Below, one piece after another: positions 52,911-64,000 of a stretch of DNA of 64,000 bases (position 1 is the stretch's first letter; the number at the start of each line of letters is the position of its first letter). The stretch is taken from NCBI RefSeq assembly GCF_056712565.1, contig NZ_CM160072.1; one strand, 5' to 3'. Both the position numbers and the translations under genes were made by a program. The notes under the pieces were generated by a model. That model saw nothing but the letters and a program-made list of their open reading frames with translations. It had not been told where the DNA came from and searched no databases.

Positions 52911-54245
52911 TTAATGTGCGTTAGACGCTGTGTGGTTATCCATTGAGTGGCTCTGGCGCTCGTGCATTTTGCGAGCGTAGAACATCAGGATAATCAGGCT
53001 GACGATGAAGGTACCTGCCAGCTCGAAGGAGCTTGCGCCCATCAGCGCGATGAAGCAGAACACGCAACCCAGTACAGAGCAGATCAGGCTGACAAAGTTG
53101 CGGATGTTAACGCCTTCAAAACGAATCAGGTCAACGCAAGAGTAGAAGTACGGCAGCATAGTCAGCAGTACTGCGATACCGGTCAGTTCACCGAACAGGT
53201 CAGAGGCTTTACCACCGGCAGAGTTCATCAGAGTGATGAGGATCATCAGGGCAGTCATTTTCACTGCAGCCAGCAGCAGACCTTTTTTCGGAATACCGTT
53301 GCTGTCGACTTCACCATAAACTTTCGGGAAGTTACCGTCGTTAGCGGCACGTACACCTGCCTGGCCTACCAACATCATCCAGGAGCCCAGAGAAGTCAGG
53401 CACGCAAAGGCGGTGAATGCAGAAACCAGTGGCGCAGCCCAGTTACCGAGGATAGTTGAAGCACTGATTGCAAACGGAGCACCGGAAGCCGCCATTACAG
53501 AAGACGGATACATACCGGAAAGCACCTGAGTCGCAGCGATGTAAACAATACCTGCTAAACCAGTACCCAGCATGGTTGCCAGCGGAACGGTACGTTTCGG
53601 GTTTTTAACCATACCAGTACTTACTGCTGCGGATTCAACACCCACGAAGGCCCACAGGCAGAGCAGAATACTTTTAATGATCGCATGACCATCAGTGGTA
53701 TCCGCAGTATTCCAGTTAGCTGCATAAGTTGCTGCATCAAACCAATGCCAGCCAACAATAGCAGTCATCACCACAGGAATAAGAACCAGCACCAGACCAA
53801 TCGTGGTTAAACGGCTTACCCAGGTACCGCCGAGCATATTCACAAAGGTAAATACCCAGACGATAGCAATACAGGCGATACCCGCCGGAACAGGATCATT
53901 TAATACTGGGAAGAAGGTGGAAAGATAAGATACAGCGGTAATACCAATTGCCAGGTTACCAATCCAGTTAGCATGGTAATAAAGAACACCTGTCTGAAAA
54001 CCAAATGCAGGGGAAATTTCTCCGGCATACGCAATTGGGCCACCTTGTTGCGGGTTTTTTGTTGCCAGTCGGGCATATACATATGCCAGCGACATTGCAC
54101 CAATAATAGAGATAATCCAACCCCAGATAGCAATACCACCGATACTTGCTAGGTTCGCAGGTAATAATGCAATACCGCTCCCCATCATATTACCGGCAAC
54201 AACACCGGTACAGGCAAATAGCCCGATCTTCTTGGCAGAACTCAT
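52911..54245 (-). CDS. cadB: Lysine:cadaverine antiporter CadB
   Basis: 444-aa APC-family membrane ORF. Confidence 0.94.
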   Translation of the reverse strand: MSSAKKIGLFACTGVVAGNMMGSGIALLPANLASIGGIAIWGWIISIIGAMSLAYVYARLATKNPQQGGPIAYAGEISPAFGFQTGVLYYHANWIGNLAIGITAVSYLSTFFPVLNDPVPAGIACIAIVWVFTFVNMLGGTWVSRLTTIGLVLVLIPVVMTAIVGWHWFDAATYAANWNTADTTDGHAIIKSILLCLWAFVGVESAAVSTGMVKNPKRTVPLATMLGTGLAGIVYIAATQVLSGMYPSSVMAASGAPFAISASTILGNWAAPLVSAFTAFACLTSLGSWMMLVGQAGVRAANDGNFPKVYGEVDSNGIPKKGLLLAAVKMTALMILITLMNSAGGKASDLFGELTGIAVLLTMLPYFYSCVDLIRFEGVNIRNFVSLICSVLGCVFCFIALMGASSFELAGTFIVSLIILMFYARKMHERQSHSMDNHTASNAH

Positions 54246-54610: not shown

Positions 54611-56149
54611 TTATTCTGAAGCGAGAAATTTGTCGAGATAAGGTACAACATAAGGAACAGAAGTCTGGAATATACCATTTTCAATCCAGTAAAGGGTGTT
54701 TGCCCCTGGGCGTAAATTAAAGGCGGTGAGATATGCATCAGCTGCTTCCCGGTTCATCCCCTTCATTTCATAAACCTTGCCAAGCAACACATAATTTAGC
54801 CAGGACATTTCAAGATCAATGCCGGTATTTATCGCCTGATAAGACTCATCTGTTTTACCTTTTACCAGGGCACTGACCGCTTTTATTTGATATATAATGG
54901 ACAGGTTGTTCAATTCCGGCAGTGTAACAATGTTATCTATTTCTGTGTTCAGTGCTGCTAATTGTTTTTCGTCTAAAGGATGTTGAGAATGGCGCACGAT
55001 ATCAACTAATGCTTTTTCTGCTCTCGCGTAGGTAAATTCTGGGGATGATTGAACAATCTCACCTAATAATTCACTGGCACGATCCAATGATTTATCATCA
55101 CCATGCAGTAAATAATCATGTGCCTGATAAAAATTAGTTAATAACGCACCACGATGCGGCAAAATTTGCTGGAGCATCTCCTGCATTCGTTGTGGCCACG
55201 GTTGGTTTAACGCTTTTGATAAACTCTGGAGCAAATCATTTTGAATCGCCAGCTGATTACCGTTAGTGATGACATAACGTTTATCCAGCATGGTTGAACC
55301 ATCTGCATTGTCTACCAATTTTACCGACATAAAGCATTGTTGAGCACGGTATTGGCGCTGATTAACAAACGCAATAGATAATGTTTTACCGGAACTGCTC
55401 GGTTCATCAATGTTGTAGTTGATTTTGTCATGCACCATAAAGGTGGAGAAGGTGTTAAGTGATGTCGCCACCAAATCACCCACGCCTATCGCGTAAGAGA
55501 GCTGATACGGAGAACTCCAGCTGTTACAACTCTTATTAACCATATTAATGTCAATATCGCGTGGATTGAGCAAAATGCGCGATTTACTCATAGGAAGACG
55601 TGTTTCAAGACTTGAAAACGCTACCAGTGCGACACAGATACCTAACGACAACAGGAAAAAAAACCATACCCAAAAGGTAGTGAATCGTTTGCTTTTAACT
55701 GGGGATTGTTCAGGTGGCGTTGTGGTGTTTTGAATGTTAAGACTGTGGGAGGGAGAATCTGTGGCAGGAACCGCCTCTGGTATAGGGGGAGGCGAAGATA
55801 GCATTATTTCCTCTCCCTCTTCTTCGCTGTACCAGATAACCGGCACCATTAATTTATAGCCGCGCTTTGGTACAGTAGCGATATAGACAGGACTATCTTC
55901 ATCATTATCTTTTAATGACTTACGTAGTTCTGAGATACTCTGCGTCACAACGTGATTGGTGACAATACTTCTCTTCCAGACATTATCGATAAGTTCATCC
56001 CTGCTAAGTACTTCGCCACTGTGTTGAGCAAAGAAAACCAGAAGATCGATTAATCTCGGCTCAAGGGTAAGTTGACGCCCATTGCGGCTAATTTGGTTTA
56101 TGGACGGAGTAACAAGCCATTCGCCAACGCGAACTACAGGTTGTTGCAT
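54611..56149 (-). CDS. cadC: Membrane-integrated ToxR-like activator CadC
   Basis: 512-aa ORF; N-terminal winged-helix domain, one TM, periplasmic sensor. Confidence 0.94.
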   Translation of the reverse strand: MQQPVVRVGEWLVTPSINQISRNGRQLTLEPRLIDLLVFFAQHSGEVLSRDELIDNVWKRSIVTNHVVTQSISELRKSLKDNDEDSPVYIATVPKRGYKLMVPVIWYSEEEGEEIMLSSPPPIPEAVPATDSPSHSLNIQNTTTPPEQSPVKSKRFTTFWVWFFFLLSLGICVALVAFSSLETRLPMSKSRILLNPRDIDINMVNKSCNSWSSPYQLSYAIGVGDLVATSLNTFSTFMVHDKINYNIDEPSSSGKTLSIAFVNQRQYRAQQCFMSVKLVDNADGSTMLDKRYVITNGNQLAIQNDLLQSLSKALNQPWPQRMQEMLQQILPHRGALLTNFYQAHDYLLHGDDKSLDRASELLGEIVQSSPEFTYARAEKALVDIVRHSQHPLDEKQLAALNTEIDNIVTLPELNNLSIIYQIKAVSALVKGKTDESYQAINTGIDLEMSWLNYVLLGKVYEMKGMNREAADAYLTAFNLRPGANTLYWIENGIFQTSVPYVVPYLDKFLASE

Positions 56150-56720
56150 AATAGAAACTCATTCGAAAAGGGAATGATGCAATGATAATTGCCATAACCT
56201 ATTTTTTCCATCTATAGATGGGTTTATTTACATATTATTGGTGAATGTAGGACGTTATTTTTACCCGCCATAAACTTCTTGATTACATAGTATTACGAAA
56301 GGATTTTACTGAGAACCAGAAGTAATTTTCCTTACCATCAAAATTCATCATCTTTGCCAAAGAAAAATGTTCAGAAAATAATCCATGAAAAATTGTCCGG
56401 AGCGCTTACTATTTTAATGGATTGTTAGTCTTTGCATGAGCAAACGGACTGATACATTTCTCTTTGTTCTCATTCAGAAAATCTCATCAGTTGGCGTTCT
56501 GCCCGATGTTGTGCTTTATGGGTGCGTTACGCTCCTGATGACGTCATTTGACGTTCAACAGCATCACGGGGCCGCACGACATTTCACGTCAGTCAGCGCT
56601 ATAGCTCAGAAACAAATTTTCCCGAATTGGGATATGCCCGCAAATTGCTGGTGATGTGGGGAGAATCTGGTTGAGTTCGGTAGAATTGATTTGGCGGCAG
56701 GACGCTTAAATCGTGGCGTC

Positions 56721-56756
56721 CTGAAACGAAAAACGGACCTCCGTGGAGGTCCGTTT
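56721..56756 (-). terminator. Rho-independent terminator native to the tRNA-Phe locus
   Basis: Minus-strand AAACGGACCTCC-AC-GGAGGTCCGTTT followed by TTTTTCGTTT; lies just 3' of the tRNA-Phe 3'-end copy. Confidence 0.65.
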
Positions 56757-56765
56757 ATATGAATT

Positions 56766-56787
56766 TGGTGCCGGACTCGGAATCGAA
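56766..56787 (-). repeat. Degenerate copy of the 3' end of tRNA-Phe: att-site direct repeat marking the island boundary
   Basis: tggtgccggactcggaatcgaa is the reverse complement of the last 23 nt of E. coli tRNA-Phe (TTCGATTCCGAGTCCGGGCACCA) with one C missing; no upstream tRNA body follows. Confidence 0.75.
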
Positions 56788-56980
56788 TATTTTATTTATC
56801 ATATTGATATTGATGTGATTTATTTGGTTTGGTGAAAAATGTACCCTCTTTTGTACCCTCAGTCCCTTTTGCTGTGAAAAAGGAATCAAACCCGGGAGTT
56901 GGAAGATGAGGTGAAAAGGGGGACGCATAAAGGGATTCACCTTAACAGCGTACTACTGTTAAGGTGGGAGGACCATCTCA

Positions 56981-57544
56981 TTATCCCCACCGGTCCCATC
57001 TCACCAGGTTGTTGATGATAATTTTATTACTAAATTTGCAGGGCGGCCTGGTTTTGTAATCCCGGCTCAGTCCTCTGAAGGCATTGATCTCCCCCCGCTC
57101 AAACAGCTCATCCTTATTCTGGTGCAGTTGTTTAAATGTGCTCAGAATGTTCGCTTCGCTGATTTCCGGAAAATTATCATATTCCAGTGACCTGAACCCT
57201 GTATCACGTGCCTGTGCATCCATTAAGGAAAACATCCCGGAACGCTGCATCAGGTTACGCCAGATTTCGCGCTCAAGATTCCGGGTAATGGCTTTCATTG
57301 CTGTTTCTGGTTTCTCCATCATCCAGCAACCACAGCGAAAATTCTGTTTCATCGCCCAGTCCGGGGCGGCTTTACCGCCAATATTTTCCGTCAGTGCTGA
57401 GATTTCTGTCAGTTGCCGGATAAGCGTGTCGATTTGCAGTAGTGTACTCTTTCGTACAGCCAGGATGTGTCTGATACTTGTGGAACAGATAACGGCTGTA
57501 TGCCCGTTGACCGCGTTCGGGTGGGGGATTGTGATATCTGACAT
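56981..57544 (-). CDS. Hypothetical island-terminal protein (possibly DUF4942-like)
   Basis: 187-aa ORF, last gene before the island boundary; family assignment uncertain. Confidence 0.45.
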   Translation of the reverse strand: MSDITIPHPNAVNGHTAVICSTSIRHILAVRKSTLLQIDTLIRQLTEISALTENIGGKAAPDWAMKQNFRCGCWMMEKPETAMKAITRNLEREIWRNLMQRSGMFSLMDAQARDTGFRSLEYDNFPEISEANILSTFKQLHQNKDELFERGEINAFRGLSRDYKTRPPCKFSNKIIINNLVRWDRWG

Positions 57545-57628
57545 TATGAGGTTTCCTTTCTGTTTATAAACGAAAACGCCAGCCCTGTTCAGGCTGGCGT
57601 CAGGAGAATGGAGTCTGGTGAGTGAGAT

Positions 57629-58051
57629 TCACCGGTTCTGGTGCATAAGTTGCAGTTGGTGCAGGGTACGGATATCCTCCCTGGCCTGTTCAATACAGGG
57701 CAGCAGTGCTGCCGAATCCGTTTTATCCTCATCGTTGTCGAAAATAATTCCGGACCCGCAGTCGATATTGTCCTGCAGCCACGCAATGAGGATATCCAGC
57801 GCTGTTTCAGTGGTTAATGGCATCACGCTCTGTATCACTGTATTGTCTTCCGGCAACTGATGAGGGCTGGCATAAGTTGCCGGTGTTTCGGTAGAGTCAC
57901 GGTCATCCACCACGCGGAGTGAATCACCGTTTTCAGCGGCCTTATTAATCAGTTCAGCGAGATTAACACCATCAATGTCAACGACAATTCGCCCCATATT
58001 CAGTGCCTGTACGTTAACGCTGTCGGCTTCCGGCGTCAGGGAAAGTTTCAT
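57629..58051 (-). CDS. YeeW-like protein
   Basis: 140-aa ORF immediately downstream of, and overlapping by 4 nt, the CbtA-like toxin gene. Confidence 0.6.
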   Translation of the reverse strand: MKLSLTPEADSVNVQALNMGRIVVDIDGVNLAELINKAAENGDSLRVVDDRDSTETPATYASPHQLPEDNTVIQSVMPLTTETALDILIAWLQDNIDCGSGIIFDNDEDKTDSAALLPCIEQAREDIRTLHQLQLMHQNR

Positions 58052-58425
58052 TGTTTCACCTCCGGGTGCTTACCCAGGATAATATTATTTACCGTTCTGT
58101 AATTGTCGCGGGTCATCAGGCCGGTCGCCCTGCGAGCCCGGAGGATATCAATACTGTTTATTAACTGAGAACGGGTACAGGCGCTGAATCCCGGCTGGTC
58201 GGTACGTACCAGTGCGTATTTTTCAACGAGAAAGTTCACCGCATCGCACAGTGAAATGCCTGCCTCAATATGCTGCTCAATCACACGTTCATCAGCGAAC
58301 GGTGTGTCATTCAGCGTAAGGCCGTAGTGCTGATCCAGCAGTCGGGTGAGCAGTGTCTGCCAGATTTCAACCGGAGACGGGCGTGAACTGGCCGCCTGCC
58401 CGGGTAATACAGGTAATGTTTTCAT
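58048..58425 (-). CDS. CbtA-family toxin (YeeV/YkfI/YpjF-like, type IV TA)
   Basis: 125-aa ORF MKTLPVLPGQAASSRPSPVEIWQTLLTRLLDQHYGLTLNDTPFADERVI... Confidence 0.8.
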   Translation of the reverse strand: MKTLPVLPGQAASSRPSPVEIWQTLLTRLLDQHYGLTLNDTPFADERVIEQHIEAGISLCDAVNFLVEKYALVRTDQPGFSACTRSQLINSIDILRARRATGLMTRDNYRTVNNIILGKHPEVKQ

Positions 58426-58513
58426 ACTGAAGATTTTCCTGATATGCAGAGATGAAAAATGGAAAAGTGGCGTGGTGAAAGCACCAGGCCGAGCAGAAGG
58501 TTATTCTGGAGAG

Positions 58514-58882
58514 TTACTTTTTCGTTTCGGGCGTCGGATAAACAGCCATATAAACGTAGCCACAACTGCCGAGGGTGTCGGCTTCGCAGGTCAGCCCTTT
58601 TGCATACAGCGTGACGGTATGCTGATGGCGGGGATTCAGTTCACCGCTGGTGAGCATGAGTTCCAGTTGTTTCATCAGCAGCGGAAAGGCCTGGTCCAGG
58701 TGGTACGAATCCGCGTCGCTGAACCGCCCTCTGATACCGGCGCGGTCGGCAAGGTAATGCAACCGGTTGCCTTCCTGTACCAGACGGGCACCAAAACAGG
58801 GCGTCACGGTGCAGGGCAGTCCCCACCAGGTACGGTCGTTATTGTCGTCGGGAAGCGTTGTCCCGGGGAGTGTGTCTGACAC
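58514..58882 (-). CDS. CbeA-family antitoxin (YeeU/YafW/YfjZ-like)
   Basis: 122-aa ORF MSDTLPGTTLPDDNNDRTWWGLPCTVTPCFGARLVQEGNRLHYLADRAGI..., immediately upstream of the toxin. Confidence 0.8.
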   Translation of the reverse strand: MSDTLPGTTLPDDNNDRTWWGLPCTVTPCFGARLVQEGNRLHYLADRAGIRGRFSDADSYHLDQAFPLLMKQLELMLTSGELNPRHQHTVTLYAKGLTCEADTLGSCGYVYMAVYPTPETKK

Positions 58883-58961
58883 GATAAAATCCTCACAGAA
58901 AATTGGTTAAGAATGGTCCGGTGGTGGCGATAATTCTGCTCTTCTGAATGCCCTTCCAGAC

Positions 58962-59183
58962 TCAGTTCAGGGTGACGCTCATCAGCCGGACATACGGACC
59001 AAAACTGTCCTTCCGGCGTTCTGCAAACACGGCCAGCACACAGGGAATATCCTGTACTTCACGGCCGGTATATGTATCCGTGCTACCGTGCCAGCGGTAT
59101 TTACCGGTACAGAACGGAAAAAGACGGGATGCAGGATGCTGACGGTGAATACGCATGGCTTCACCACGGGTGATGATTTTCAT
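58962..59183 (-). CDS. DUF987 protein (YeeT-like)
   Basis: 73-aa ORF in the conserved position between the RadC-like and CbeA genes. Confidence 0.65.
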   Translation of the reverse strand: MKIITRGEAMRIHRQHPASRLFPFCTGKYRWHGSTDTYTGREVQDIPCVLAVFAERRKDSFGPYVRLMSVTLN

Positions 59184-59269
59184 GAGAATAGTCCTCCTGA
59201 ATGTGAAAGTAAGAAACAGCTGAGAAAGAGAAACTGAAGTGATATGAAGGTGATTGTGACGGTGACGGG

Positions 59270-59746
59270 TTAAAGCAGACCGTGTTCCGCAAAGGAGAAA
59301 ACCTGGCTGCCACCGACTATCAGATGGTCCGGCACCCGGATATCCACCAGGCCCAGTGCCTGTACCAGACGTTCCGTGATAAGGCGGTCTGCCTTGCTGG
59401 GTGTGACTTCACCGGACGGGTGATTGTGTGCCAGCACCACAGCAGCGGCATTGTGATACAGGGCGCGTTTAATCACTTCCCGGGGATGGACTTCCGTGCG
59501 GTTGATGGTGCCGGTGAAGAGGGTTTCACCGGCAATCAGCTGATTCTGGTTGTTCAGATACAGCACCCGGAACTCTTCCCGCTCCAGTCCCGCCATGTTC
59601 AGAATCAGCCATTCTCGTGCCGCACGGGTGGAGGTGAAGGCCACGCCGGGTTCATGAAGATGGCGGTCCAGGGTTTTCAGGGCCCGTTGAATGAGGCTGC
59701 GCTCACCGGGCGTCATTTCTCCGGGCAGAAAGGAAATCTGTTGCAT
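59270..59746 (-). CDS. RadC-like JAB-domain protein (YeeS/YkfG/YfjY-like)
   Basis: 158-aa ORF with JAMM/MPN motif HNHPSGEVTPSKAD. Confidence 0.8.
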   Translation of the reverse strand: MQQISFLPGEMTPGERSLIQRALKTLDRHLHEPGVAFTSTRAAREWLILNMAGLEREEFRVLYLNNQNQLIAGETLFTGTINRTEVHPREVIKRALYHNAAAVVLAHNHPSGEVTPSKADRLITERLVQALGLVDIRVPDHLIVGGSQVFSFAEHGLL

Positions 59747-59760
59747 TGTTCCGGCCCCTT

Positions 59761-60240
59761 TCAGTCAATGATGCGCATAATGGCGCTGCATTCCGGATGC
59801 TGCAGGGCGTAATCCCGCAGCCGGTAATAATGGACCGTCATGGCATAACATTCCGTACGACAGGCATGATGGCTGTACGTCATCAGACAGGCGGCAATAC
59901 CGGCAGCTTCCGGACTCATTTCAGCGCGGTTACCGTTCATGGCATTGAACAGTACCCATGTTTCGTCATCATCGTCATCCGGTTCAGGTGCCATAAATGC
60001 GCCACCGTTGTTCAGGGTGTACAGATTCCAGATGCCCCCGCAGTAGTCTTCGCACAGACGGTCCATCCAGCCGAAGACACGGGGCTCCAGGGTCACCCAC
60101 TGTGGAATGAGGCCAAAATGCTGCGGCCAGAAGCTGATACGTTGTTCATCAGGGACGGGAGTAGCAACCAGTTGGGGCTGGTTATTCCCTGGTGCTGTGG
60201 CTGAAGAAAGAGCAGTTGTGTTCTGAGAAACGATTTTCAT
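59761..60240 (-). CDS. Antirestriction protein (ArdB/KlcA-like)
   Basis: ORF 59761..60312; start at MKIVSQNTT (cat 60238-60240); ISFWPQHFGLIPQWVTLEP...GGIWNLYTLNNGGAFMAPE. Confidence 0.75.
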   Translation of the reverse strand: MKIVSQNTTALSSATAPGNNQPQLVATPVPDEQRISFWPQHFGLIPQWVTLEPRVFGWMDRLCEDYCGGIWNLYTLNNGGAFMAPEPDDDDDETWVLFNAMNGNRAEMSPEAAGIAACLMTYSHHACRTECYAMTVHYYRLRDYALQHPECSAIMRIID

Positions 60241-60505
60241 GAGTGAAATCCTTACAATGTGTATAAATGAGAGGAAATAAAGGCCGGGGGCTGACAACAT
60301 CACGTTCATCACTGACCGTGAGACCCGGCAATATCAGGGATGAATGATATTCGGCTGAAATTCCGGACAGCCGTACGCGTAACCGTTCCGGTCACAGACG
60401 GATGGCCAGAAGATGCCATTGCCTGTACTCAGTCTGCACAGACTGAGTTCTCCGGGGCGTCGGGTGATTCTGGTGCCTGAATCACGCCTTCAGGGACAGA
60501 TTGCA

Positions 60506-61324
60506 TCAGCGCAGGCTCTCCAGTAGCGTTTCTGCCATCACCCACAATGCGCGATTGAGCTTAATGCCGGTGTCGATGCTGTGAATGGCACGGGTGTGGA
60601 TACGTTTTCCTCTGGCACTGCGACCGGAAATTCCGCCTTTTAGCATATTCTCCTGGATGGTCTGATAAGTACTCCACAGGTCCTTACCGTAATCCTCCCG
60701 GCGTCGTGGCGTCAGAATGTCGGCGGTGGTGACGGGCTGATGTTCGTCACCATAACGGTAAGTCAGTGCCGCCTGTGCCAGCGCCTGGCGTGTCGGTGGC
60801 GGCAGGACCAGCGACTGCATGGCATCACGCTTCTCCTCTATCCGGTCAAACACGCCCACCACCTCGTAAGCCCCTTCAATAACTTTCTCCACCACATTTC
60901 CCCGGTGTGGAACACGCAATTCTCCCAGAGACTGACCGCAGACCAGTCCATTGGTACAAATGGCACGAAAATATCCGGGTAACATCTGGTAGCTGGATGA
61001 ACCGTCATGGGAGTTGAGCAGAATAATTTCAGGCACATGCTGACCGGTTATCTGTCCGGCCCGCCGCAGACGCAGCATATGTTTGGTATATTCCCGGCGG
61101 CTCTGGTCGCGCACACGGGTCTGGCAGGCGAAGAACGGCTGAAAGCCTTCCCGCTGCAGATTTTCCAGGACGGTGATGGTGGGAATGTACGCATACCGTT
61201 CACTGCGGGAGGTGTGCCGGTCTTCTCCAAAAATACTCGGGACGTGGTACATCAGTTCTTCGCGTGTCAGTGGGCGCTCCCGACGGATCTGATTTACATG
61301 ACCAAAACGACTGGCTAATTGCAT
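60506..61324 (-). CDS. DUF932-family protein (YfjQ/YafZ-like)
   Basis: 272-aa ORF; length and position typical of CP4-type islands. Confidence 0.65.
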   Translation of the reverse strand: MQLASRFGHVNQIRRERPLTREELMYHVPSIFGEDRHTSRSERYAYIPTITVLENLQREGFQPFFACQTRVRDQSRREYTKHMLRLRRAGQITGQHVPEIILLNSHDGSSSYQMLPGYFRAICTNGLVCGQSLGELRVPHRGNVVEKVIEGAYEVVGVFDRIEEKRDAMQSLVLPPPTRQALAQAALTYRYGDEHQPVTTADILTPRRREDYGKDLWSTYQTIQENMLKGGISGRSARGKRIHTRAIHSIDTGIKLNRALWVMAETLLESLR

Positions 61325-61413
61325 ACTTTGCTCCTTATGAATGAATTAGCGGTATAAACGAAAAGGCCGCGTCTCCCGGAGAAGACGCGGCCTGATGGAT
61401 GAAATGAAGACGT

Positions 61414-61647
61414 TTATTGCCTGAGAATTCCCTCACTGGCGAGATACGAATTTAGCTGTTTTCCGGCATCAGGTTCAAAATTCCAGCACCGCCAGCGTAG
61501 CTGCCCTTCGGCATTGCGGATAACCAGCCGGAAATGCGTTCCCTGGTCATCTTCAATAAGCACATTGCGGTAAGCTGTTGTGATGACAACCGCCTGTTCG
61601 CGTGAGAAAGGGCCTTCGGGCAATAAAACAGGGCGACAGTCCAACAT
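61414..61647 (-). CDS. DUF905-like small protein
   Basis: 77-aa [62 protein letters not shown]... Confidence 0.55.
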
Positions 61648-61652
61648 ACCGG

Positions 61653-62330
61653 CTATTTTCCGATAAATTCAACGCTGGCGCCGGTGGCATTACCGTCAGC
61701 ACCAACCGTGACGGTCACTTTGTCGTACGCACGGTCTTCAGGATTGAATACTTCAAACTCAACCTTATTGCCTTTTACTTCGTAAGAGCCAAAATCAGCG
61801 GTTTCTGTTGTTTCCTCGTCGTATTTCCGGGCGTATGCCTGTCGGGCAGCCTGCAGTACGGAGTCTTTATTAATAGTGGTCGTCTGTTTCGGGGAAAAAA
61901 CGGCAAGTGATGTGACAAATTTCGGACAGACCTTCAGCATATCACCGCGGGTGAATTCCATTCGTACACCAAATGCCTGTAAAACGGACACATCACGCTC
62001 TGCTATGGAGTGAACGGCTTTTTTGACCATTTCCGACGCCTGTTCGGCTTCCACCTCAACAGCCCTGAATCCCGTCTGCTGATTACACATTTGTGATGTG
62101 GGGATCAGGTTACCGTTAATACTGATACGGCTGCCCAGGAGCGTCTGTACGCCATTCGGGCATCCCTGCATCAGGCCGGTAATACCAATCGTGCCATTTT
62201 TCAGCATTACCAGCGCCTGACCATCTTCCGTCATGGTCTGGCACCAGCCGTTTTTGACAGCCCAGTTACCGGCGGAGGCGGAGAAGGATGCAACAGTGAA
62301 AAGCAGGGGAAAAAGAGTTCTGGTATTCAT
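61653..62330 (-). CDS. Putative secreted/periplasmic protein of unknown function
   Basis: ORF 61653..62438; start at [20 protein letters not shown] (cat 62328-62330), a signal peptide. Confidence 0.55.
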
Positions 62331-62480
62331 GACTGACCTCTGAAATGAACGTACGGTGTTATTGATAATGATGGAAGGTATGCAGTGACTGTTCAGGAAA
62401 TGACGTAATAGCCATATATTTAGTTTTCTGTTCAACATATTGTCTCCATACCTGTCGGGACGGCTTTGGCAGGCCGGCGA

Positions 62481-63161
62481 TCACAGGTTAAAGGTGTTGA
62501 TAAGTTTATGGATGAAAGAGAAATGTGGCAGGGCGGAGATAAAACGCTCTTCAGCGACCAGATTGTGGATGTGGCCTCTCCGTTCAAACCGTTCTGATGT
62601 CAGGCTGACTGATTTGATATCTGCCAGGGGAAAGACCTGCAGTTTTCCCTTCTGTAACGCGATCAGATACCAGCTTCCGCTGTAATAAATGAGCCGGCAG
62701 GGCTCCAGTGACGTATACCATCGCTCAGTCATCAGCGAGATGTGGATACACTGTTTTATTGCCAGGATGAGTTGCGAGAAACACTCGGGGAACGTTGCAG
62801 TGATATCCGGCGCCGGTAGCCAGATAAGGCAGGGAGAGGGCTCCTGGTTGTCGGTAAGACAGGTTATCAGTCGTCCGTTCCGGAGCGGAAGTATCCGTGC
62901 GATCCCGGTATTCTGTATAAAAGAAAGCATTTCAGGGATCGCACACGGGCTGCTCTGTCGTCTGAGGCTGTACCTGCCATTTCTGTACTCTAAATCCAGG
63001 TGAACCAGACGCTGATGAAAATCGCGCTGTAAAGTACGTTCTGTAACGCCAAATTCATCTGACAGTGTCTTTAGTGACAGAGATTCTCCGGCCATCAGTC
63101 GGCTGATAATGAGTGATAAGCGAACCGCCAGACGATCATGCCGGGAACGATCATCAGACAT
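62481..63161 (-). CDS. HTH + WYL-domain transcriptional regulator (YfjR-like)
   Basis: 226-aa ORF; N-terminal HTH and WYL signature IYYSGSWYLIA. Confidence 0.7.
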   Translation of the reverse strand: MSDDRSRHDRLAVRLSLIISRLMAGESLSLKTLSDEFGVTERTLQRDFHQRLVHLDLEYRNGRYSLRRQSSPCAIPEMLSFIQNTGIARILPLRNGRLITCLTDNQEPSPCLIWLPAPDITATFPECFSQLILAIKQCIHISLMTERWYTSLEPCRLIYYSGSWYLIALQKGKLQVFPLADIKSVSLTSERFERRGHIHNLVAEERFISALPHFSFIHKLINTFNL

Positions 63162-63363
63162 AGATGTGTACTCCGTAAGAAAACATCTTTTATTTCATGA
63201 TGTTATTATGCCTCATGGTGTTGAAAGGATGTGTCGTATCTGAATAATCAGGAATAAAATGCAGCAGAAAAAATATTCCTTTAATTATCTGATTTTTAAT
63301 GATGATTTCATAAAAAGAAGAATACTCGTTAATCCAGCGACACATCCTGTCGGCGTGAGTGTG

Positions 63364-64000
63364 TCAGAACAGACGATCCCACAGTGTTTCCAGCAGGCGG
63401 ATAATGCGGTCCCGGGCTTTACGCAGAAGCTGTAACATCCAGACCGGAAAAGTGAACCGGGCAACGGCGTCGTCAAAACTTTTCCCGATGGCGTCACCAA
63501 AAGTCTGTTGTGCGTGTTTCTGGGCCTGTTCAGAGCGGTTTTCCCCCCGGATATGTGAATAAACCGCACTGGTTGCCTGCGGTGGCAGGGCGTGGATCAT
63601 CAGCGACACAAACGCCGGAAGATTCCAGCCGACAGGCGCAGCAACGGGGAGTACCGGAAATGATGACGGGAACAGGGTTGCCACCCTGGCTGTAACAGTT
63701 GCCAGTGAGAGTTCCTGGTGACGGGATGGGCATTTTTCTGTGGCATTCCATTCTTCAGCAGGAAACACGCGATCGGCATGGCTGAGAACAAACAGAAAAC
63801 GCGAGGGATCTGCACCTTCATTCAGTAAAAACTGATGCATGGCAATATCGGCAGCATACGCACGTTCATCAGCCCGCAGGATCCAGATAATCAGATCCAG
63901 TTCCGGCAGTAACTGACGGTAAATCTCCCGGTATTCCTGATCATGCTGCGGTGTCTCACCAATGCCGGGCAGATCGACCAGCGTCATTCTGCGTTCACCA
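63364..64000 (-). CDS. YeeP/YkfA/YfjP-like GTPase, C-terminal part; 5' end lies beyond the window
   Basis: Minus-strand frame open to the window edge; contains DLPG (G3-like) motif, but the N-terminal P-loop would lie upstream. Confidence 0.6.
   Translation of the reverse strand, partial: GERRMTLVDLPGIGETPQHDQEYREIYRQLLPELDLIIWILRADERAYAADIAMHQFLLNEGADPSRFLFVLSHADRVFPAEEWNATEKCPSRHQELSLATVTARVATLFPSSFPVLPVAAPVGWNLPAFVSLMIHALPPQATSAVYSHIRGENRSEQAQKHAQQTFGDAIGKSFDDAVARFTFPVWMLQLLRKARDRIIRLLETLWDRLF

Follow-up and report, generated by a model that had tools for sequence, protein, structure and literature searches.

Positions 56788-64000 of a 64,000-nucleotide stretch of DNA from contig NZ_CM160072.1 (the whole stretch is called the window) hold a row of minus-strand genes resembling parts of the E. 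coli K-12 cryptic prophages. This raised the question of which element these genes belong to, how far it extends, whether its gene order is peculiar to this strain, and what the genes may do for it. Our analysis indicates that this segment of 7.2 kb is very probably the attR end of a pheU island of 63.1 kb and that it forms a conserved CP4-type backbone, which may serve establishment and maintenance.

Boundary, extent and identity of the pheU island

Sequence reading, alignment and fuzzy search placed attR at 56766-56787 (minus strand), where 22 nt from the 3′ end of pheU are directly repeated, which gave an exact boundary to the CP4-type island end at pheU proposed in the earlier note. The repeat equals the last 23 nt of pheU with one C missing, the attL copy being 23 nt long. 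Across the pheU-to-cadC stretch, only two copies were found by fuzzy search, the one in pheU and the one at 56766-56787, and in the alignment the homology with K-12 ended at the latter. The supposed absence of the island from K-12 was confirmed, as pheU there directly adjoins the yjdQ relic (an empty site). Island genes between cadC and pheU in K-12, named beforehand as the observation that would speak against strain specificity, were looked for and were absent.

Outside the boundary, the segment 56633-56765 (minus strand) was identified by alignment with K-12 and with the attL of ATCC 11775 as the sequence 3′ of pheU in K-12; it includes the pheU terminator, a terminator-like hairpin of 11 pairs at 56731-56756. 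A copy of this segment also follows pheU at the attL of the present island (90.4% over 156 bp, blastn). Further out lies what is left of an earlier integrase gene of the pheU type, equivalent to yjdQ (56412-56602, minus strand), in which tblastn with the island integrase matched residues 1-11 at 56570-56602 and residues 359-420 at 56412-56568. RefSeq annotates a partial integrase at the same coordinates and K-12 has yjdQ in the same place; the relic is core DNA common to K-12 and lies outside the present island. On the island side, the terminal 111 bp (56788-56898) recur in intact islands of this type at pheU. Strain AVS0713 matched the segment 56000-56898, which spans the junction, at 97.3% identity.

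The window matched E. coli ATCC 11775, S88 and APEC O1 at 100% identity; in these genomes the island of 63.1 kb reaches an intact integrase and pheU. The extension up to pheU that the earlier note had asked for was carried out in these identical genomes, where the full gene list could be read. Between the attL and attR repeats the island measures 63,122 bp, and the gene of a 421-aa tyrosine recombinase starts 198 bp past pheU (ATCC 11775, S88). As in tRNA islands, a direct repeat of the tRNA 3′ end, an integrase beside the intact tRNA gene and an empty site in a relative were all found; the island was inserted by a P4-type tyrosine integrase at the 3′ end of pheU, a tRNA-Phe gene. The cargo, at first regarded as unknown, is legible in the same public genomes and consists of the grp microcompartment locus, a Qat defence system, a nucleotidyltransferase-SLATT pair, a decarboxylase-antiporter cluster and IS debris. 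The proposed check of composition against the core gave a divided answer: rare codons were 2.6-fold enriched in the module (55 per 1000 vs 21 per 1000 in the flanking core genes), which points to a foreign origin, but the GC content of the module in the window (51.5%) did not differ from that of the core (51.0%), the whole island being at 47.8%.

The island is already known and is catalogued as PAI-S88-pheU, tabulated at 64 kb and 48% GC (NC_011742 4621378..4684940), with PapX as the sole determinant named and the DUF4942-GTPase end not described (PMC7545054). An 8-kb query matched it at 100.0% listed identity, with a score slightly under those of exact matches. The integrase, MarR/PapX-like regulator, decarboxylase and antiporter proteins were identical, the sizes (63-64 kb) and GC contents (48%) agreed, and no difference was found in the parts compared.

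Gene content and decay of the attR-side end

Twelve minus-strand ORFs had been read from 56788 to the window end, and the families named for them were borne out by a Pfam search run on the concatenated ORFs; the RefSeq annotation of the identical sequence agrees with this reading. The families on the first gene list thus stood, but the DUF957 fusion, the DUF4942 truncation and a decayed 81-aa ORF had been overlooked.

The distal half begins with a YfjP/YkfA-type GTPase (63364-64000, minus strand, as are all genes and hairpins described below; Pfam MMR_HSR1, 6e-14; 33-35% to YfjP and YkfA), whose gene extends past the window end to 64248 as read from the whole gene in ATCC 11775. Next lies the gene of a short HTH-WYL transcription regulator of 226 aa (62481-63161), a homologue of K-12 YfjR from CP4-57 and also of the ykfK pseudogene from CP4-6. 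Its Pfam matches were both weak (WYL, 7e-4; HTH_11, 9e-4), but three other searches reinforced the assignment: PADLOC gave WYL at 2e-18, a PafBC profile matched at 7e-8, and in a fold search with Foldseek all of the top 25 matches were WYL regulators, the best being CapW, DriD, PafBC and BrxR. Both a winged HTH and a WYL beta-barrel were found, and W164-Y165-L166 was invariant in 28 homologues. Where a C-terminal WCX dimerisation domain would be expected in such regulators, only about 30 helical residues (196-225) follow the barrel, and the solved relatives are longer (266-330 aa). Regulators of this kind bind an operator in dependence on a ligand, often single-stranded DNA; for K-12 YfjR, ChIP-exo saw no DNA binding under the conditions used (PMC8464067). 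Structures containing single-stranded DNA as a bound molecule exist for two of the solved WYL relatives, DriD and CapW.

The neighbouring gene (61653-62330) encodes a secreted or periplasmic protein of 225 aa with a signal peptide and four conserved Cys, from a family confined to Enterobacteriaceae. It had no homologue in the K-12 elements CP4-6, CP4-44 and CP4-57 and obtained no family assignment, a point that the first gene list had also missed. The GTPase and secreted-protein genes lie side by side in Escherichia and Klebsiella and also in contigs further removed, including those where the regulator is missing, and the backbone order likewise recurs in Klebsiella and in more distant contigs. 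The regulator is not indispensable to the module, since the Klebsiella versions are devoid of both DUF905 and the WYL gene.

A DUF905 protein of the YkfF family (61414-61647; Pfam, 1e-28; 60% to YkfF) is followed by a strong terminator-like hairpin (61364-61393; 13-pair stem, 9 GC pairs) and by a DUF932 protein of the YafZ/YfjQ family (60506-61324; Pfam, 6e-47). The antirestriction protein (59761-60240), a homologue of YafX and YfjX-LfgA, matched the Pfam profile Antirestrict PF03230 over its full length (1e-35; model positions 1-92 of 92) and the PHROG anti-restriction family at 1e-62. We take PF03230 to be the KlcA/ArdB family, and on this homology the protein would alleviate type I restriction.

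In the proximal half, the RadC-like JAB-domain protein of the YeeS and YfjY-LfgB family (59270-59746; Pfam RadC, 8e-43; TIGR00608 above cut-off) is 78% identical to LfgB (YfjY), which was reported as a protease (PMC10846083). It is followed by a YeeT-like DUF987 protein (58962-59183; Pfam, 5e-36), a CbeA/YeeU-family antitoxin (58514-58882; Pfam CbeA_antitoxin, 5e-53) and a CbtA-family type IV toxin (58048-58425; Pfam CbtA_toxin, 4e-57). The two last genes are adjacent with the antitoxin first, as in type IV toxin-antitoxin pairs. Toxins of such pairs act by blocking FtsZ/MreB, an effect that the antitoxin opposes without binding to its toxin.

The island end is decayed, with the DUF4942 and YeeW genes truncated and one small ORF broken. 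An in-frame fusion ORF (57629-58051), split by RefSeq into partial DUF5983 and DUF957, joins an N-terminal fragment of YeeW (DUF5983; Pfam DUF5983_N, 2e-26) to the DUF957 gene; 83 bp (57820-57902) stand in for 358 bp of the intact arrangement, and the intact DUF5983 protein of AVS0713 has 162 aa. Past this toxin-antitoxin and YeeW block comes a terminator-like hairpin (57575-57601; 11-pair stem, 7 GC pairs, T-rich tail). The terminal ORF (56981-57544; Pfam DUF4942, 9e-28) covers only model positions 1-124 of 190 and yields 187 aa vs 280-284 aa in intact relatives. RefSeq treats it as a pseudogene without its C-terminus, and the gene is intact in CFT073 and AVS0713. Local blastn against AVS0713 revealed that an 86-bp filler (56899-56984) replaces the final 282 bp of the gene; an IS3-family fragment of 54 bp occupies 56930-56983 (92.6% to a plasmid IS3 pseudogene, local blastn). 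The third remnant is a small Cys-rich ORF between the DUF932 and antirestriction genes (60334-60506), 81 aa when intact, in which three-frame translation against the intact STEC1575 copy disclosed an internal deletion leading to a frameshift. A Pfam search with it gave no match, and the spacer variant with the decayed ORF was present in 2588 genomes. As three genes at the DUF4942 end are decayed, selection does not act on part of the module in this lineage.

Related elements and rival readings

The proximal half had been described as a mirror of yeeR-S-T-U-V-W, and this held for yeeS-T-U-V-W, but yeeR had no counterpart by tblastn. CP4-44 has the same order, with identities of 99% for the RadC-like protein (YeeS), 92% for DUF987 (YeeT), 91% for CbeA, 96% for CbtA and 89% for the YeeW N-terminus. 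It differs in having flu and yeeR, which in such Ag43-carrying modules stand between the GTPase gene and yeeS, and only a yeeP pseudogene, in lying elsewhere than at pheU, and in being without the DUF932, DUF905, antirestriction, WYL and secreted-protein genes, all of which are present here. The reported absence of flu/Ag43 was upheld, since Flu and YeeR queries gave zero tblastn matches in the window and in the whole 63-kb island. CP4-57 (yfjP-yfjQ-yfjR ... lfgA-lfgB-ypjJ-yfjZ-ypjF) and CP4-6 share the same families, the WYL regulator included (GTPase 35%; DUF932 73%, to YfjQ and YafZ; YfjR 43% over its full length by tblastn; antirestriction 70%; RadC 78%). However, they are inserted at ssrA and thrW, have DUF932 directly after the GTPase rather than after DUF905, and carry lipoprotein genes (ypjK, yfjS, yfjT; yafY, ykfB) in place of the secreted protein.

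The curated GI-CFT073-selC, c4491-c4581, credited to Lloyd et al. 2007 as tabulated in PMC6315130, has the same backbone order from GTPase to DUF4942. The GTPase-WYL-secreted protein-DUF905 cassette was found there at 97.8% nucleotide identity, together with 48 kb of cargo 99.3-99.9% identical to that of the present island (grp, Qat, nucleotidyltransferase-SLATT, decarboxylase cluster). Over the backbone, the GTPase-to-DUF932 half was 97.6% identical and the antirestriction-to-DUF4942 half about 90%. It differs in its insertion at selC, in its integrase (42% identical), in its intact DUF4942 and in having no decayed small ORF between the DUF932 and antirestriction genes.

Likeness also extends to plasmids. 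DUF932 homologues of 60-64% identity were found on at least 5000 plasmids, 4428 conjugative ones among them, and the order on an IncFIA plasmid is ssb, DUF905, psiB, hok, DUF932, an SLT gene and traM. In F-type leading regions the DUF905 and DUF932 homologues thus lie near ssb, psiB and hok, beside oriT and traM, the DUF905 homologue being known from annotation only, adjoining ssb (IncF). Genes of a conjugative leading region adjoin oriT, are the first to be transferred and come with ssb, psiB and single-strand promoters. The common ground is confined to DUF905 and DUF932 homology: no oriT, relaxase, ssb, psiB or transfer genes are annotated in the 63-kb island, which does not qualify as a conjugative leading region. 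The structured spacer upstream of the antirestriction gene (60241-60505; DNA fold z -4.4), considered as a leading-region-like element, was rejected: it proved to be the decayed ORF, and no counterpart of the spacer was found in the leading regions of conjugative plasmids.

The distal half had been singled out as a distinctive variant, and an architecture that is rare or new and peculiar to this strain could be argued from the lack of flu and yeeR compared with CP4-44, from DUF932 following DUF905 and from the secreted protein without homologues in the three K-12 elements. Nevertheless, the cassette, counted as present at 80% coverage or more, occurred in 1593 of 5426 complete E. coli genomes and the whole 8-kb stretch in 1371. 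These counts refute the idea, to which we give practically no credence; the YfjR homology, and the same order at CFT073 selC and, regulator included, at pheU in AVS0713 speak against it as well. The stretch is a CP4-type backbone common to many enterobacterial tRNA islands and to CP4-6, CP4-44 and CP4-57.

It also seems improbable that the stretch is what remains of a phage satellite or P4-like prophage and carries phage genes. The integrase is of P4 type, an AlpA/excisionase-like HTH gene and an inovirus Gp2/YfjJ-like gene lie just past the window, PHROG families match the DUF932, DUF905, antirestriction and WYL proteins, and the K-12 relatives carry a cryptic-prophage annotation. Those PHROG matches are, however, to families of unknown function or antirestriction, and close homologues of DUF932 and DUF905 reside in conjugative-plasmid leading regions. 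Moreover, the cargo serves metabolism and defence, and the annotation of the 63 kb shows no gene for capsid, tail or lysis, none of the Psu/Sid/Delta type, and no virion or replication gene of a phage. We similarly doubt that the GTPase and WYL regulator genes make up, together with the toxin-antitoxin genes, a cassette for defence against phages instead of an establishment module. The regulator fold does match CapW and BrxR, named for CBASS and BREX, the matching PADLOC WYL models are labelled CRISPR-Cas-associated signalling proteins, the GTPase weakly matched LeoBC in PADLOC (2e-7, no stretch passing alone), and the cargo includes the Qat system and the nucleotidyltransferase-SLATT pair. 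But the LeoBC match is marginal, the WYL gene is dispensable in the Klebsiella versions, antirestriction is an anti-defence function, and PADLOC matched no defence model to the secreted, DUF932, DUF905, DUF4942 or antirestriction proteins.

Proposed role of the backbone

What KlcA/ArdB-type antirestriction proteins do is established, as is the function of CbtA/CbeA in K-12. From these functions and by analogy with plasmid leading regions, we infer that the stretch 56788-64000 serves establishment and maintenance of the island. When the island arrives in a new host, its antirestriction, DUF932, DUF905 and RadC-like genes would come into play, CbtA/CbeA would stabilise it once resident, and the short HTH-WYL protein may be an accessory ligand-sensing regulator. 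The backbone may also offer homology for recombination between islands, which would account for the near-identical 48 kb of cargo at CFT073 selC beside an unrelated integrase.

The short HTH-WYL protein that joins the GTPase and the secreted protein in E. coli may be of the single-stranded-DNA-sensing kind. There is an outside chance that the GTPase, the secreted Cys-rich protein and the WYL regulator form a switch responding to DNA entry or damage by activating the antirestriction, DUF932 and RadC genes. If true, such a switch would represent an uncharacterised control of these genes in tRNA islands.

Boundary of the island and earlier occupation of pheU

The island was delimited by comparison with K-12, in which cadC is followed by yjdQ (an integrase pseudogene), 198 bp of sequence, pheU and dicD. 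On the core side of the window lie cadB (52911-54245) and cadC (54611-56149), both on the minus strand, and the alignment with K-12 covers yjdQ and the first 23 nt of reverse-complemented pheU, where similarity stops. At this point a repeat corresponding to the last 23 nt of pheU minus one C was found (TGGTGCCGGACTCGGAATCGAA, attR, 56766-56787); the first base of the island is thus 56788, exactly the start proposed in the earlier note. In the ORF listing, minus-strand ORFs are continuous from 56981 to the window end.

The 8-kb segment 56000-64000 was 100% identical to the chromosome of ATCC 11775, the E. coli type strain, so that its annotation could be read directly and the sequence traced past the window end; the same identity was listed for S88, APEC O1 and many more strains. 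The island was therefore followed through the annotation of public genomes identical over this segment. In ATCC 11775 an intact pheU lies 63,122 bp past the attR repeat, with a 421-aa tyrosine integrase 198 bp after it, and no third copy of the pheU-end repeat was found between attR and the intact pheU. As pheU is located past the window end, no tRNA gene was found in the tRNA scan of the window. The description as a CP4-like island end at pheU, absent from K-12, was borne out: the pheU-end repeat is present, and in K-12 pheU lies next to yjdQ with none of the island between them. A review table (PMC7545054) lists this island as PAI-S88-pheU, 64 kb with 48% GC, and its coordinates bracket the boundaries found here. 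The island, and everything found in this stretch, is already known or catalogued.

On the core flank of attR, 56412-56787 is a relic of an earlier pheU island. Its integrase gene has an internal deletion leaving amino acids 1-11 and 359-420, and 156 bp are 90% identical to the pheU end and the sequence 3′ of pheU at attL, the pheU-side end. The yjdQ of K-12 is the same integrase relic, and since it is common to the window and K-12, integration at pheU has happened on at least two occasions.

Cargo, mosaic history and decay

Extension of the island up to pheU, advised in the earlier note, was carried out and the cargo was read out in ATCC 11775. On the pheU side lie the integrase, a TPR protein, copies of IS1 and IS3 and a regulator of the MarR/PapX type. 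Further inward, an Orn/Lys/Arg decarboxylase and two antiporters are followed by the Qat defence system and a nucleotidyltransferase-SLATT pair, then by remnants of type VI secretion genes and the glycyl-radical propanediol microcompartment locus grpA-S. Fragments of RND, TetR and AraC genes come last, together with an AlpA-like HTH gene, a gene resembling inovirus Gp2/YfjJ and a 407-aa hypothetical protein, next to which the backbone begins. The two defence systems (nucleotidyltransferase-SLATT and QatABCD) and a complete grpA-S were located in two ATCC 11775 sequences (L002, 27441-34464 and 38942-49001; L001, 36239-48001), its grpO and grpP being separated by reverse transcriptase/maturase genes of group II introns. 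About 1.3 kb past the window end, a 1.45-kb AT-rich gap (L001, 29574-31025) separates the 407-aa hypothetical from the Gp2/YfjJ-like gene; no annotated gene, ORF longer than 60 aa or Rfam match was found in it, and CFT073 has a similar gap.

CFT073 carries the identical backbone gene order at selC, inside the curated GI-CFT073-selC. Over 48 kb of cargo (ATCC 11775 4317587-4365410; L002 and L001 against L018 and L008 of CFT073) the two islands were 99.3-99.9% identical, indicating that one cargo is present at two different tRNA genes. Identity was 97.6% in the GTPase-to-DUF932 half of the backbone and about 90% in the antirestriction-to-DUF4942 half, and the two integrases were only 42% identical. 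In a sliding comparison the closest match shifted along the backbone among CFT073, the AVS0713 pheU island and K-12 CP4-44. Recombination between paralogous backbones could have produced this mosaic pattern, and would account for the presence of one cargo at two tRNA genes.

Decay was assessed against the intact pheU island of AVS0713. The DUF4942 gene has lost its last 282 bp, with 86 bp in their place, including a 54-bp IS3-family fragment (56930-56983) at the truncation point; this arrangement suggests that an insertion sequence, no longer present, caused the deletion. In DUF5983, 358 bp are missing, and it is consequently fused in frame with the DUF957 gene. Between DUF932 and the antirestriction gene, 60334-60506 (minus strand) is what remains, after a frameshift, of a Cys-rich ORF of 81 aa that is intact in STEC1575 (L016, 235-480); this small ORF is labelled 'antirestriction protein' in the annotation of one genome and gave no Pfam match. 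The corresponding 265-nt spacer (60241-60505) folded as DNA better than all 200 shuffles (z -4.39), and as RNA not clearly better than shuffles (z -1.99). A single-strand promoter in this spacer was rejected, as it holds the ORF remnant and is absent from the leading regions of conjugative plasmids. The Rfam search of 56000-64000 returned one chance-level match under the gathering score (c4-a1b1, E 0.46), and that of the 8.5 kb past the window end none. Promoter and terminator counts differed from the shuffle mean by no more than about one standard deviation, with only three strong-looking hairpins in the terminator scan, and the repeat scan gave only short, unremarkable repeats.

Backbone genes and the WYL regulator

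A Pfam scan was run on the twelve ORFs in two concatenations. The first set gave CbtA_toxin, CbeA_antitoxin, RadC, DUF987, Antirestrict, DUF4942 and DUF5983_N, and the second DUF932, DUF905 and the MMR_HSR1 GTPase, with WYL and HTH_11 weakly; NCBIfam named the RadC and generic GTPase models alone. The DUF4942 match covers the N-terminal two thirds only, and its overrun of the ORF end (87-216) was dismissed as an artefact of concatenation. The antirestriction protein is of the KlcA/ArdB type. Besides a signal peptide, the secreted protein carries four conserved cysteines; its homologues are confined to Enterobacteriaceae, and no family or structural match was found for it.

Against CP4-44, RadC was 99% identical to YeeS, DUF987 92% to YeeT, CbeA 91%, CbtA 96% and the YeeW fragment 89% to YeeW. 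The mirror of yeeR-S-T-U-V-W that had been described thus stands for yeeS to yeeW and fails for yeeR: counterparts of YeeR and Flu are missing from the window and the entire island, the latter in agreement with the reported lack of flu/Ag43. CP4-6 and CP4-57 products were 70-73% identical to the antirestriction and DUF932 products, and CP4-6 60% to DUF905. DUF932 follows DUF905 in the island, whereas in the K-12 elements it stands directly after the GTPase, and the secreted protein takes the place of K-12 lipoprotein genes. The WYL protein was 43% identical over its full length to CP4-57 YfjR, and at the N-terminus 66% to the CP4-6 ykfK pseudogene, so that the regulator is not foreign to K-12 elements. 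The distal half had been regarded as distinctive; with YfjR in CP4-57 and the DUF905-secreted protein-WYL-GTPase cassette in 1593 of 5426 complete genomes, that view was not upheld.

PADLOC WYL models matched the regulator at 2e-18, and a profile built from 28 homologues, in whose alignment W164-Y165-L166 is invariant, matched the PafBC WYL region at 7e-8. The top 25 PDB matches of its AlphaFold2 model (pLDDT 76) were CapW, DriD, PafBC and BrxR. At 226 aa it is shorter than these relatives, and with only about 30 residues after the beta-barrel the usual C-terminal domain is reduced. YfjR, its K-12 homologue, showed no DNA binding by ChIP-exo (PMC8464067). In the GTPase-WYL spacer, a 14-nt inverted repeat (63223-63236 / 63338-63351; 93% complementary, arms 101 nt apart) could be an operator, and the lone promoter-like site of the spacer sits between its arms. 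Backbones in Klebsiella and more distant metagenome contigs lack WYL and DUF905, with the secreted protein right after the GTPase, and these gene sets show that other genera can do without the regulator. The most distant of these contigs have two more ORFs (427 and 177 aa) between the secreted protein and DUF932.

Origin, proposed role and distribution

The proposed check of composition against the core gave a divided answer: rare codons (55 per 1000 in the module vs 21 per 1000 in the core) support a foreign origin, but GC (51.5% vs 51.0%) does not and is uninformative as a marker. Homologues of DUF932 at 60-64% identity were found on at least 5000 plasmids, including 4428 conjugative ones, and in the leading region of an IncFIA plasmid DUF905 and DUF932 stand among ssb, psiB, hok and traM. 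The CbtA/CbeA of K-12 is a characterised type IV toxin-antitoxin pair. From these leading-region genes, the KlcA/ArdB-type antirestriction gene and the near-K-12 toxin-antitoxin pair, we infer that the backbone may serve as an establishment-and-maintenance module. This role is put forward as a proposal only. The island annotation contains no oriT or transfer genes, the regulator is dispensable elsewhere and YfjR was negative by ChIP-exo.

The 56000-64000 segment was present at ≥80% coverage in 1371 of 5426 complete E. coli genomes, and the exact attR junction with truncated DUF4942 in 355 genomes; the GTPase, secreted protein, DUF932, DUF905, DUF987 and DUF4942 genes each occur in at least a quarter of complete E. 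coli genomes. With the island catalogued, its backbone among the commonest E. coli accessory modules and CbtA/CbeA characterised, the finding carries little weight as a discovery; what is gained is a base-exact boundary, a cargo list and the placement of the distal half in a common YfjR-type architecture.
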